From a virus (Duplodnaviria > Heunggongvirae > Uroviricota > Caudoviricetes), in the IMG/VR virus record IMGVR_UViG_2695420613_000010: DNA of 5,608 nucleotides, one strand, 5' to 3'. This document shows, piece after piece, positions 1,698-4,296 of this stretch (position 1 is the first letter of the stretch; each line of letters opens with the position of its first letter). The notes beneath the pieces were generated by a model that saw only the letters and a list, made by a program, of their open reading frames with translations, did not search any database and had not been told where the DNA came from. The translations under genes were made by a program, and so were the position numbers.

Positions 1698-1976
1698 TTA
1701 CCTCCAGATGCGTTGCTGGAATGTGCGGGACGGACGCGGTGGGCGTTCGGAGTAAGGAAGCCTGACGGAGATTATCCAGTGACGATAATCGAGACTGAGG
1801 GCTTTCTTAACCTCGTATCCGCGCCTGCGGTAACACTGAATCAGCCATTCAGCCTGTTCTTCGGTGCAGGGGTCGTGCTGATACCAGTCAGATTTGAATG
1901 CATGAGAACGCCGCCCGTGCCTGCTGGCAGGGGCGGCAGAGTTATCCGAATTGTAAAATTTGGTATCGTGCGCCAT
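1698..1976 (-). CDS. rem: Rem-like small prophage protein (hypothetical); start placed at internal Met downstream of the hok terminator
   Basis: The track ORF 1698-2105 (135 aa) would run through the intrinsic terminator at 2047-2075, so the start is more plausibly ATG 1976 (MAHDTKFYNSDN..., 92 aa). Lies directly downstream of hok as rem does in K-12 Qin; identity is by synteny and memory, not alignment. Stop TAA 1700-1698 abuts the GTG start of the next gene. Confidence 0.55.
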   Translation of the reverse strand: MAHDTKFYNSDNSAAPASRHGRRSHAFKSDWYQHDPCTEEQAEWLIQCYRRRGYEVKKALSLDYRHWIISVRLPYSERPPRPSRTFQQRIWR

Positions 1977-2046
1977 CTGTTTTCTCTGCTGGCGCAGCAG
2001 GTGCCAGTTGTTCAGGCTGACGGATGGATTGTAAACCAGAACGACC

Positions 2047-2075
2047 AGAAAAAACAAAACCCGCCGAAGCGGGTT
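2047..2075 (-). terminator. Rho-independent terminator at the 3' end of the hok transcript
   Basis: Minus strand reads AACCCGC-TTCG-GCGGGTT followed by TTGTTTTTTCT: a 7-bp GC-rich stem with a UUCG tetraloop and a U-rich tail, about 70 nt after the hok stop. Confidence 0.7.
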
Positions 2076-2143
2076 AAGTGCGGGTGCGTTGAGGATGCCT
2101 GACACATCAGCGGTGGCGAGGGATTTCTCCCCCGCCTGGTCTC

Positions 2144-2299
2144 TTACTCCTCAGGTTCGTAAGCTGTGAAGACAGCGACCTCCGTCTGGCCGGTTCGGAT
2201 TCGTACCTCGCAGAGGTCTTTCCTCGTTACCAGTGCCGTCACTATGACGGTTAAACAGATGACGATCAGGGCGATTAACATCGCCTTTTGCTGCTTCAT
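2144..2299 (-). CDS. hokD: Hok-family type I toxin (host-killing membrane peptide), HokD/RelF-like
   Basis: 51-aa product MKQQKAMLIALIVICLTVIVTALVTRKDLCEVRIRTGQTEVAVFTAYEPEE, which from memory matches HokD/RelF. Single N-terminal TM helix plus conserved C-terminal Cys, typical of Hok/Gef. AAGGAG lies 7 nt upstream of ATG 2299. The track ORF 2144-2356 is an in-frame upstream extension. Confidence 0.9.
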   Translation of the reverse strand: MKQQKAMLIALIVICLTVIVTALVTRKDLCEVRIRTGQTEVAVFTAYEPEE

Positions 2300-2542
2300 A
2301 ACCTGCTTCTCCTTGCCTTTCGGCGCGTAAGAGGCTAACCTACGTTTGTGAAGCATAGATTGGGCCTCAGATTAATGTTAAGCGTCTTGCAGGACGCGTA
2401 ATGTTAACTGGGGCTTTTCTCTGTCTGCCTTACGGTGGCATGCCCGAGGCAGACAGCCTCAAGCACCCGCAGCAATTCTACTTAACTCTCGCTTTACAGC
2501 AAACCGTTTTGCCCGATATGGGAATTCCCATACGGAATGAAT
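2300..2542 (-). promoter_or_regulatory. hok leader / regulatory region with direct repeats and palindromes
   Basis: Contains 9-bp direct repeats TAATGTTAA (2373-2381 and 2399-2407) flanking the inverted repeat GCGTC-TTGCAG-GACGC (2382-2397), a perfect 10-bp inverted repeat CTGTCTGCCT/AGGCAGACAG (2421-2430 / 2447-2456), and a perfect 16-bp palindrome TATGGGAATTCCCATA (2517-2532). No mok-like overlapping ORF and no clear Sok promoter/terminator could be identified by eye. Confidence 0.4.
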
Positions 2543-2682: not shown

Positions 2683-2760
2683 TTACCCCCACCGACAAAT
2701 AACATATACTAGAAAAGCAATAGCTATAGCAACGCCTGCAAATGCATCTGGCCGGCTCAT
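2683..2760 (-). CDS. Hypothetical 25-aa hydrophobic peptide, translationally coupled to the 187-aa ORF (ATGA overlap)
   Basis: ATG 2760-2758 overlaps the TGA stop (2759-2757) of the 187-aa ORF; GGGGGAG lies 5-6 nt upstream. Translation MSRPDAFAGVAIAIAFLVYVICRWG ends at TAA 2685-2683. Very short, so this is a weak call. Confidence 0.3.
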   Translation of the reverse strand: MSRPDAFAGVAIAIAFLVYVICRWG

Positions 2761-3320
2761 TGGTTCTCCCCCTGTGTCGCTTCTACTGCGATCTGACTGG
2801 CGTATTCGTTAATGGTAACGATAAGTTCTTGCTCGGCCTCATCCAGACAACTACCGATACCTCGCCTGTCCACTTCAGAAGCATCGAAATCTGCACGAAG
2901 CCTGGCGACCTTCAGGATTGCGGACAACACCTCATCAGGGATTGCCGGAGAGTTGGTTGACGTTTCCGAGATTATCCGAAAATTATTGGTTGACGAACCC
3001 TTATTTTCCCGAAAGTTTCCAGCCTGAAGCATGGCGGCGCGGTGACACCAGATAATCCAGCCAAGCGCCATATCCCATGCCATGTATTCTCTATCGCCAT
3101 TTTTTGCTCTGCGGCGATCTACAGATTCCCCGAAACGCTTCTCCATAAATAATTCATAGGCTGCCCGTTCATCCGATACTGATGCCAGTGATGCCAGTGC
3201 AATTTTTAATGCGGTAAGCATGTTGTTTTGATCTTCATCGAGTCCGAACGGTATTTCATCCCGTGATGACTCAATTCCGGTAATCGTGTTCTGTAGCCAT
3301 TCTTTGGTTAATTCAGTCAT
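2757..3320 (-). CDS. Hypothetical 187-aa protein of unknown function (cargo/moron candidate)
   Basis: Long ORF MTELTKEWLQNTITGIESS...ATQGENQ with ATG at 3320; no motif recognised. It follows a 126-bp AT-rich intergenic region and a GC-rich hairpin just before the start codon, and looks less GC-rich than the flanking conserved genes. Contains a tandem 9-bp repeat TGATGCCAG x2 (3180-3197) encoding ALASLAS. Weak Shine-Dalgarno. Confidence 0.7.
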   Translation of the reverse strand: MTELTKEWLQNTITGIESSRDEIPFGLDEDQNNMLTALKIALASLASVSDERAAYELFMEKRFGESVDRRRAKNGDREYMAWDMALGWIIWCHRAAMLQAGNFRENKGSSTNNFRIISETSTNSPAIPDEVLSAILKVARLRADFDASEVDRRGIGSCLDEAEQELIVTINEYASQIAVEATQGENQ

Positions 3321-3446
3321 TTTTCACTACCGCCCTTTCGGGCGGTCTCCTGATGTTCTGAGGGTGCAGGAATCCCTCCGGTTAAGGATTTAATAAAAAT
3401 CATTTCTGATTTAAATTTTCAGTGTTTAGTTGTTGGTTTATAGCCT
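3321..3446 (-). promoter_or_regulatory. AT-rich intergenic region with candidate promoter and a 5' stem-loop over the RBS of the 187-aa ORF
   Basis: Minus strand contains AT-rich ACTAAACACTGAAAATTTAAATCAGAAATGATTTTTATTAAAT with several imperfect -35/-10-like hexamers. A 7-bp GC stem with GAAA loop (3329-3346, ACCGCCC-GAAA-GGGCGGT on the mRNA) ends 9 nt before the ATG. A second short inverted repeat GAGGG...CCCTC lies at about 3360-3378. No T-tract follows the hairpin, so it is not a canonical terminator. Confidence 0.3.
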
Positions 3447-3758
3447 TTATGCTTCGGCCTTATTTCTCAGCCATACACAAACAGGACCATCTTCGGTGTC
3501 ATGTATCGAACCGATAAACCATCCCTCACCTTCTGGTCGCTCAGGTTCCCATGCTGAAATATCAGGGCCATCTGCGTCCAGATTAAAATCATCTTCATCC
3601 ATACTACGGATAGCCCACTGAAGATTATTTTTCTCCATCCAGGCGTTAAACTCTTCCGTTGAAATATATTCCCGACCATCACAGAATTTTTCATATTCAG
3701 GATGCGTCCAGCAGCCATATTCATTACGTTCCACTGGCATTTCTTTAATTACGCTCAT
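3447..3758 (-). CDS. Hypothetical 103-aa strongly acidic prophage protein
   Basis: ATG 3758 overlaps the TGA stop of the upstream 62-aa gene (ATGA); AAGGGGGG lies upstream. By manual count the product MSVIKEMPVERNEYGCW... has about 25 D/E against about 9 K/R. Confidence 0.75.
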   Translation of the reverse strand: MSVIKEMPVERNEYGCWTHPEYEKFCDGREYISTEEFNAWMEKNNLQWAIRSMDEDDFNLDADGPDISAWEPERPEGEGWFIGSIHDTEDGPVCVWLRNKAEA

Positions 3759-3943
3759 TTACCCCCCTTATTTAATTTTCTACGACACTTTTTACAATCA
3801 TCTGGACTTTCGAATGTATCCGGCTCACGCTCATTGCCAAAATACATCCACCCACCGCAAATACTTGTTATTTCACCTTCAGCAAAATAATGATGTTTTT
3901 TCGCCATAAGTGGCCTTGCCCAGCCCGGATTCGTTTTACTCAC
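3755..3943 (-). CDS. Hypothetical 62-aa basic protein
   Basis: GTG start at 3943 overlaps the TGA stop of the 118-aa gene (GTGA) and is preceded by AAAGGAGG at 6 nt. Product MSKTNPGWARPLMAKKHHYF...CKKCRRKLNKGGK is lysine/arginine-rich at the C-terminus with 3 Cys. Confidence 0.65.
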   Translation of the reverse strand: MSKTNPGWARPLMAKKHHYFAEGEITSICGGWMYFGNEREPDTFESPDDCKKCRRKLNKGGK

Positions 3944-4296
3944 TTGTTGCCTCCTTTGCGAAGCTCTGCGACTAACTCGTCACATATGTGCGTCAAAGAG
4001 CAAAGTTTGATTGCTGGATGTTCGCGCACCATCTCCACACCCTGCGCCCGCAATTCTGCCAGAAAAGCGTAGGGGTCAGTTTTTTCACTGTGGTACATGG
4101 CATCATAGATAATCATTGCAGCGACACCTGCCTGTCCTGCATCTGTGACGGATATATGCTCAAGGGCTACGGCCATTGCGTGTTTCAACCTCTCATTTTC
4201 CACCTCAAGCACCACACGATTAGCCTCCAGCTCTTCTATGCGTTTTTTTGCTGCTCCCAGCTCAACACGCAGCTCCTGATAGTTAATCTCGCTCAT
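3940..4296 (-). CDS. Hypothetical 118-aa prophage protein with N-terminal coiled-coil-like segment
   Basis: ATG 4296 overlaps the TGA stop of the 74-aa gene (ATGA); GGGAGGAAGGAGA lies immediately upstream. The N-terminal ELRVELGAAKKRIEELEANRVVLEVENERLK is heptad-like. Confidence 0.75.
   Translation of the reverse strand: MSEINYQELRVELGAAKKRIEELEANRVVLEVENERLKHAMAVALEHISVTDAGQAGVAAMIIYDAMYHSEKTDPYAFLAELRAQGVEMVREHPAIKLCSLTHICDELVAELRKGGNK

Follow-up and report, generated by a model that had tools for sequence, protein, structure and literature searches.

A stretch of tailed-phage DNA of 5,608 nucleotides (nt; Caudoviricetes, IMG/VR record IMGVR_UViG_2695420613_000010), referred to here as a whole as the window, carries a small gene for a strongly acidic protein of 103 amino acids (aa) which, to judge from its profile match, is a stand-alone copy of the PHROG 1372 domain. 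The family travels with temperate phages, phage-plasmids and conjugative plasmids of Proteobacteria as accessory cargo. Its members have been found on mobile elements only, in variable regions, and acidity is a conserved trait among them. The favoured reading, put forward tentatively, is that the protein acts as a stoichiometric decoy or inhibitor of a conserved host protein that handles nucleic acids. The anatomy, conservation, distribution and modular fusions of the domain, as well as a confidently predicted fold that has no solved relative, are matters of observation; the function is a proposal drawn from sequence and model.

The open reading frame (ORF) at 3447-3758 is a real gene, because it coincides with a coding sequence (CDS) in RefSeq, is preceded by a Shine-Dalgarno-like run, has its start in an ATGA overlap with the stop of the upstream gene, evolves under strong purifying selection, with a median ratio of non-synonymous to synonymous substitution rates (dN/dS) of 0.08 against 32 diverged copies, and is modelled by AlphaFold2 with a mean predicted local distance difference test score (pLDDT) of 86.8. 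An O157:H7 chromosome matches the window at 100% identity, and in it RefSeq lists the same CDS as a hypothetical protein (WP_000111243.1).

The protein contains 25 Asp and Glu residues (24.3%) and nine Lys and Arg residues (8.7%), which gives a net charge of -16 and an isoelectric point (pI) of 4.21; it also contains six Trp. The original prediction, which took it for a possible DNA mimic of the Ocr or ArdA kind, had put Asp and Glu at about a quarter of the residues with few basic ones, and the count agrees. Its further claim that the acidic residues cluster in the C-terminal half is correct as far as it goes (15 acidic and 3 basic residues, against 10 and 6 in the N-terminal half), and the N-terminal half is acidic as well. 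The segment DEDDFNLDADGPDISAWEPERPEGEGW, residues 54-80, holds 11 acidic residues and a single basic one. This composition exceeds chance and puts the protein at about the top 1% of its neighbours: of 142 neighbouring gene clusters (60-250 aa) that recur across 125 related loci, one reaches the Asp and Glu fraction of the protein and none its pI.

The match to the phrog_1372 profile (E = 3.7e-55, 187.5 bits) spans residues 1-102 of the protein and positions 55-158 of the 194 in the profile. In a profile search of 1.84 billion representative proteins, 960 relatives are returned at E <= 1e-3 and 321 at E <= 1e-10, and all 73 of the longer relatives tested match PHROG 1372. Across 36 homologues the net charge runs from -9 to -25 with a median pI of 4.22; the median over 340 domain copies is -15, and 95% of these copies reach -8 or lower. 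The family is called "hypothetical" or "prophage protein" in every source. Pfam, NCBIfam and PADLOC give no match to the acidic protein (Pfam and PADLOC at E <= 0.1), and no enzyme-like signature is found in it. Among PDB sequences, phmmer with the protein matches Strep-tag II only, and the profile search returns nothing. Literature searches by PHROG identifier, accessions, sequence motifs and keywords give nothing on the PHROG 1372 family, and no match to it occurs in the supplements of papers on the discovery of anti-CRISPR and anti-defence proteins. No source searched holds a characterised member, and so none whose known function would contradict the one originally predicted. The gene is annotated, and the family, unnamed and unstudied, deserves a name and a Pfam entry.

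Conservation is strict. G15, H19, F37, W70, P75, G77, W80, F81, G83, I85, H86 and W96 are conserved in the close alignment, and only G15, H19, W70 and P75 are invariant in the distant one, H19 being the sole invariant polar residue of the family. W-F-I-G-S-I-H-D-T-E-D-G-P-V-C-x-W-L-R stands out as the strongest motif of the family. Acidic residues are at least 80% conserved at about nine positions, and residues ~53-66 vary in sequence and length. The AlphaFold2 model, built on a 36-sequence alignment, has a predicted template modelling score of 0.78 and suggests a compact α/β fold with the acidic loop on its outside. In the model residues 51-70 have no regular secondary structure (block-mean pLDDT 74-77), and the alignment columns of the acidic loop (74-92) show insertions, deletions and low identity. 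The first part of this loop (~53-66) is variable, and its end bears the conserved W70-x-P-x-x-P75-x-G-x-G. In the β-hairpin that follows, residues 80-99, D-T-E-D-G lies at the turn. A comparison of the model with the PDB gives no fold match, whether to Ocr, ArdA, Gam, the anti-CRISPRs or the solved C-terminal domain of Ea22.

Several short resemblances within the protein were considered and rejected. A 2H-phosphoesterase, suggested by H-D-T-E and T-H-P, is contradicted by H86, which is not conserved in distant members, and by the first motif, which is not H-x-T/S. An EF-hand-like DxDxDG calcium loop at D-T-E-D-G has the wrong spacing (by inspection only), and mimicry of the SSB C-terminal tail by MDEDDF is dismissed since the segment is internal and not conserved. 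The likeness of WTHPEYEK (residues 17-24; 3687-3710, minus strand) to Strep-tag II, WSHPQFEK, is a chance resemblance to an affinity tag, which could nevertheless give cross-reaction with Strep-Tactin in pull-downs.

The domain is also modular. Of the 150 best representatives, about half are longer proteins in which the domain occupies one end. Counting fusion partners above the Pfam cut-offs, these are a Lar-like restriction alleviation domain (P0140, P0181), a Tad2-like (anti-Thoeris) domain (P0171), an Rv2179c-like exoribonuclease (P0191, P0194), DHHA1 (P0184) and KTSC (P0236, P0325). The Lar (PF14354) and Tad2-like (PF11195) profiles have no match in the acidic protein itself and are present only as fusion partners in other members. 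Several partners are homologous to genes that elsewhere are separate neighbours, including a cluster whose members in phage D6 are named Ead/Ea22-like by RefSeq. In one member of 305 aa (P0133) the domain occurs twice in tandem (residues 12-122 and 166-276), a hint that it may act as a dimer.

At a nucleotide identity of at least 80% the gene is carried by 793 of 5,426 complete Escherichia coli genomes (~15%), with a median of two copies per carrying genome, often in several prophages. Deposited lambdoid phages with the domain are mEp460, mEp213, an Stx2k phage and Rac-SA53; the domain is found further in the P1-like D6, in Yersinia phage PY54 (a linear record), which we take to be N15-like, and in phages of Erwinia, Klebsiella, Burkholderia, Vibrio, Pseudomonas and Acinetobacter, phi1026b among them. 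The D6 homologue adjoins homologues of ppp and pdcB, and precedes a metallophosphoesterase gene, with an overlap of 4 nt, and an HNH gene. In other phages the genes that directly flank the homologue are likewise small and very acidic (L002 3780-4004; L046 5360-5623; clusters 19, 35 and 59), for example the 74-aa D6 orf95 type (pI 4.23, net -0.16 per residue), the DUF7167 proteins and a 64-aa family, which makes the locus resemble a small cluster of genes for acidic accessory proteins.

The family is also present on conjugative plasmids. In a survey of one genome per species, 16 of the 40 copies lie inside an F-type transfer operon, which encodes a type IV secretion system (T4SS), in the order TraW, unknown genes, domain gene, TraU, TrbC, TraN, TraF; 14 of the 40 have an integrase or excisionase gene (int/xis) within five genes. 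The F-type operons of Pantoea, Enterobacter, Citrobacter and Erwinia have an accessory module inserted between traW and traU (L099-L121, for instance L113 5001-9617 and L115 3589-4608), made of one or two copies of an unannotated 190-340-aa protein, small unannotated proteins and then the acidic domain; the proteins of this module have no Pfam or PHROG match. Homologues more distant than the E. coli set occur in 1,964 of 72,556 plasmid records (~2.7%), of which 1,699 are predicted to be conjugative and 1,451 are from Klebsiella. A KPC-2 plasmid of the IncFII/IncFIB pKpQIL type (NZ_CP027158.1, L126 11999-14961) has the order traX, finO, PIN, hypothetical, DUF2726, homologue, PLD-family, repA; this homologue has 102 aa and a net charge of -8, and its start overlaps the stop of the DUF2726 gene. 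DUF2726 belongs to the PD-(D/E)XK superfamily (PMC3424549). The block between finO and repA is conserved in Klebsiella IncFII/IncFIB plasmids and places three nuclease-like genes around the acidic protein, and the DUF2726 neighbour is present in most of the sampled records among the 1,451 from Klebsiella.

How these features could serve a decoy or inhibitor can be outlined as follows. A rigid core would present a conserved patch of aromatic residues and His (W17, H19, W70, W80, W96), together with the acidic hairpin tip H-D-T-E-D-G, and a flexible acidic loop would lie at their flank. The partner bound by this surface would be a conserved, basic host protein that handles nucleic acids; candidates are nucleases, restriction and other defence proteins, and repair or recombination enzymes. 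Its capture would protect the DNA of the element during replication or transfer. Such a decoy includes DNA mimicry and does not require it. The low dN/dS, the near-invariant Trp, Gly and Pro residues and the one invariant His together imply a precise fold and one conserved interaction site. The conserved extreme acidity, the mosaic accessory cargo and the Lar-like and Tad2-like fusions lean towards a role in counter-defence or host inhibition. From all this we infer protein binding, the identity of the target and the benefit to the mobile element. A further proposal, that the protein founds a new fold family of mobile-element-encoded inhibitors that neutralise a conserved host nuclease or immune protein, is rather unlikely; were it true, the strict conservation would reflect a target that is hard for the host to change.

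A number of observations weigh against the decoy or inhibitor reading. It has no experimental or homology link to any inhibitor, and the predicted fold resembles neither Ocr, ArdA, Gam nor the anti-CRISPRs, nor anything else solved. Rapid evolution is frequent among counter-defence proteins, whereas this domain is strongly conserved. The majority of fusion partners are unannotated or coiled-coil proteins, not known anti-defence domains. The plasmid copies lie within or after the tra operon and not in the leading region, the usual site of establishment and anti-restriction genes. The invariant His among Trp residues could equally be a small-molecule pocket.

That last point leads to the alternative of a small-molecule sponge or small enzyme, in which a nucleotide-like ligand would sit in a pocket made by H19 and a ring of conserved Trp and Phe, following the logic of Tad2 and Acb2, which soak up immune signals. 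H19 does stand among the conserved aromatics W17, W70, W80 and W96, strong purifying selection would suit a fixed ligand, six Trp in 103 aa is consistent with such a ring, and the domain is fused elsewhere to the Tad2-like sponge domain and to two nucleotide-processing domains, DHHA1 and the Rv2179c-like exoribonuclease. However, a net charge of about -15 is unfavourable for anionic nucleotides, neither fold nor profile resembles a known sponge or phosphoesterase, and the loss of H86 from the apparent H-x-T motif in distant members speaks against a 2H phosphoesterase, which leaves this alternative improbable. An Ea22-type role is less improbable, yet still unlikely: here the protein would serve phage development or host physiology, its domain being one of a set of interchangeable globular heads, free-standing or borne on a coiled-coil stalk, that bind a host protein and bias lysis-lysogeny or host growth, with no part in defence evasion. 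Ead/Ea22-like coiled-coil genes flank the gene in the window and in most lambdoid copies, in many long members the domain is joined to a partner encoded elsewhere by a neighbouring gene, and some copies adjoin xis and int. Lambda Ea22 itself is a coiled-coil tetramer whose variable C-terminal domain is thought to bind an unknown host protein (PMC10834534). Against this, the model has no fold match to the solved Ea22 C-terminal domain, Pfam Ead_Ea22 (PF13935) has no match to the acidic protein, and the domain is abundant in conjugative plasmids and T4SS operons, where lysis-lysogeny is not decided.

Within the decoy reading, the special case of a classical DNA mimic of the Ocr or ArdA type, in which a rigid array of carboxylates imitates the phosphate backbone and blocks Type I restriction-modification (R-M) or bacteriophage exclusion (BREX)-type enzymes, is hardly probable. 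In its favour are the small size, the net charge of -16 and pI of 4.21, acidity conserved across the family, carriage by phages and conjugative plasmids as in ArdA, and the Lar-like domains fused in at least two protein clusters. Set against these are the lack of any resemblance, in sequence or in fold, to the solved DNA mimics and anti-CRISPRs, the nature of the densest acidic stretch, largely a loop varying in sequence and length and not a rigid charge array, the identity of the invariant residues (Gly, His, Trp and Pro, not carboxylates), the strongly purifying selection, and the position of the plasmid copies, which is within tra operons or at their far end and outside leading regions. The Ocr- or ArdA-like interpretation of the original prediction is neither confirmed nor refuted by this balance. 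A still less probable account makes the protein the immunity or inhibitor partner, barstar- or Im-like, of a nuclease encoded alongside. The pKpQIL-type start does overlap the stop of a PD-(D/E)XK gene of DUF2726, with a PLD-family gene next; the D6 homologue precedes metallophosphoesterase and HNH genes, and the DUF968/HNH gene of the window lies ~1.75 kb downstream. But the neighbouring "nuclease" differs by context and is absent from many (T4SS operons, most lambdoid copies), although a dedicated antidote would co-vary with one partner, and the many pKpQIL-type records with this arrangement represent a single clonal plasmid lineage. The idea that the gene is a chance ORF or a decaying prophage remnant without function draws on the terminase and integrase pseudogenes of the host prophage; it is effectively refuted by the conservation data, namely the dN/dS, the 960 representatives and the confident fold prediction, and by the presence of the gene in viable phages and successful epidemic plasmids.

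If the protein does disarm a host nuclease or defence, it would represent a new and very widespread counter-defence module, with a bearing on how Stx-type prophages and epidemic resistance plasmids become established, and the few known acidic decoy proteins would be joined by a structurally new scaffold that follows a known strategy. Should its role be developmental or physiological instead, it would provide a handle on the poorly understood accessory regions of lambdoid phages.

The locus is a nin-type region, from replication genes to Q, of a lambdoid O157:H7 prophage. Every gene in the window is read from the minus strand. The matching genome runs from cI-like/Cro/YdaT through replication genes, DUF1627 and four small genes that include the acidic gene, and on to a 187-aa acidic protein, hokD with sok, DUF968/HNH (~1.75 kb downstream of the acidic gene in the window), RusA and Q. 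The prophage is integrated beside a tRNA-Ser gene and mtfA and has pseudogenes elsewhere (terminase, integrase). In the ~24-kb stretch of prophage around the window a RecE-like exonuclease is annotated and no Gam is. The label of an early phage protein, used in the original prediction, is only roughly apt, as the gene sits in a nin-type region between replication genes and the antiterminator Q. Transcription of such regions is delayed-early, by analogy with lambda. No promoter-like or terminator-like site of note flanks the acidic gene or lies between it and the upstream gene, and the acidic gene is best read as one cistron of a long rightward operon. The ATGA overlap with the upstream gene suggests, as far as sequence goes, co-translation in one operon. 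The coordinates of the gene and of the parts of its protein are collected in Table 1.

Table 1. Features of the acidic gene, the parts of its protein and the gene upstream, in window coordinates (residue numbers are those of the 103-aa protein).
Feature	Position	Strand	Basis and remarks
CDS of the 103-aa acidic protein	3447..3758	(-)	ORF list, ATG start; = RefSeq WP_000111243.1
Shine-Dalgarno-like run AAGGGGGG, G-rich, just 5' of the ATG	3762..3769	(-)	Read from sequence
N-terminal motif R-D/N-x-x-G-x-W-x-H-P, residues 9-20 (VERNEYGCWTHP)	3699..3734	(-)	Alignments; G15 and H19 invariant, including distant subfamilies
Acidic surface loop between strands, residues 53-79 (predicted)	3522..3602	(-)	AlphaFold2 model and alignments
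β-hairpin, most conserved motif of the family, residues 80-99 (predicted)	3462..3521	(-)	AlphaFold2 strands 80-88 and 91-99; columns nearly invariant
Small Cys/His-containing gene, upstream neighbour	3755..3943	(-)	phrog_2358, function not assigned; ATGA overlap

The longest ORF of the upstream neighbour encodes 62 aa, and the RefSeq start, 12 codons later, gives 50 aa; this type of gene is the usual upstream neighbour only in the closest lambdoid copies. Two genes upstream of the acidic gene, a 118-aa gene (3940-4296) has a sub-threshold match to Ead_Ea22 (E = 0.0041, 18.1 bits against a cut-off of 27). The 187-aa downstream neighbour (2757-3320, minus strand) is also acidic (net -12, pI 4.6) and has no Pfam match; it is grouped in a large single-linkage cluster that includes proteins named ead/Ea22-like by RefSeq. 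The 126-nt spacer that follows the acidic gene (3321-3446, minus strand) folds at -31.6 kcal/mol, more stably than its shuffles (z = -3.3), and contains a hairpin (3329-3346; ACCGCCC-GAAA-GGGCGGT, with a stem of 7 bp of G+C) whose end is 8 nt short of the ATG of the following gene and which lacks a U-run. This hairpin could serve translational control or RNA stability, or could be a remnant. Further downstream lies a complete toxin locus of the hok/sok type (2144-2468, minus strand), with a Hok/Gef ORF (Pfam E = 3e-23; RefSeq hokD, 51 aa), an overlapping mok-like frame of 70 aa and an Rfam match to sok (2294-2468; 114.9 bits). A strong hairpin that resembles a terminator, T-run included (2058-2075, minus strand; AACCCGC-TTCG-GCGGGTT TTGTTTTTT), falls inside the 5' part of a longest ORF of 135 aa (1698-2105, minus strand), which supports the shorter, 92-aa start of RefSeq for that gene; the hairpin marks where the hok transcript ends.

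Among known systems, the closest relation is to PHROG 1372 itself, of which the acidic protein is a direct member, with phrog_20322 and phrog_6157 as related, likewise unannotated groups; this PHROG has no function assigned, and its profile begins with an N-terminal extension of ~55 residues that the protein of the window lacks. The C-terminal domains of Ead/Ea22-like proteins share its genomic neighbourhood and the Ea22 domain is likewise a small α/β module (PMC10834534), but the fold is different and the PHROG 1372 domain is common on plasmids as well.

Ocr (T7 gp0.3) is the prototype phage DNA mimic, blocks Type I R-M and BREX, and has about a quarter or more of its residues as Asp and Glu. 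Like the acidic protein it is small (~100-117 aa), very acidic, phage-encoded and in principle dispensable for growth. It shows no similarity to the acidic protein in sequence (Pfam, PDB sequences) or in fold. Ocr is all-helical, carries its charges on rigid helices and is the first gene expressed, whereas the acidic protein is predicted to be α/β, has much of its charge in a variable loop and is encoded mid-operon in a nin region. ArdA (Tn916 Orf18 and the ArdA of plasmids) is also acidic and widespread on conjugative plasmids and other mobile elements, but has no homology or fold match to the acidic protein. The ardA genes occupy leading regions and are expressed early in the recipient; PHROG 1372 copies, by contrast, lie between traW and traU or between finO and repA. 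The acidic DNA-mimic inhibitors of RecBCD, lambda Gam and T7 gp5.9, have no detected similarity to the acidic protein and offer an analogy only. Their role would nevertheless suit both of its contexts, because the rolling-circle replication of phages and conjugative transfer both expose DNA ends.
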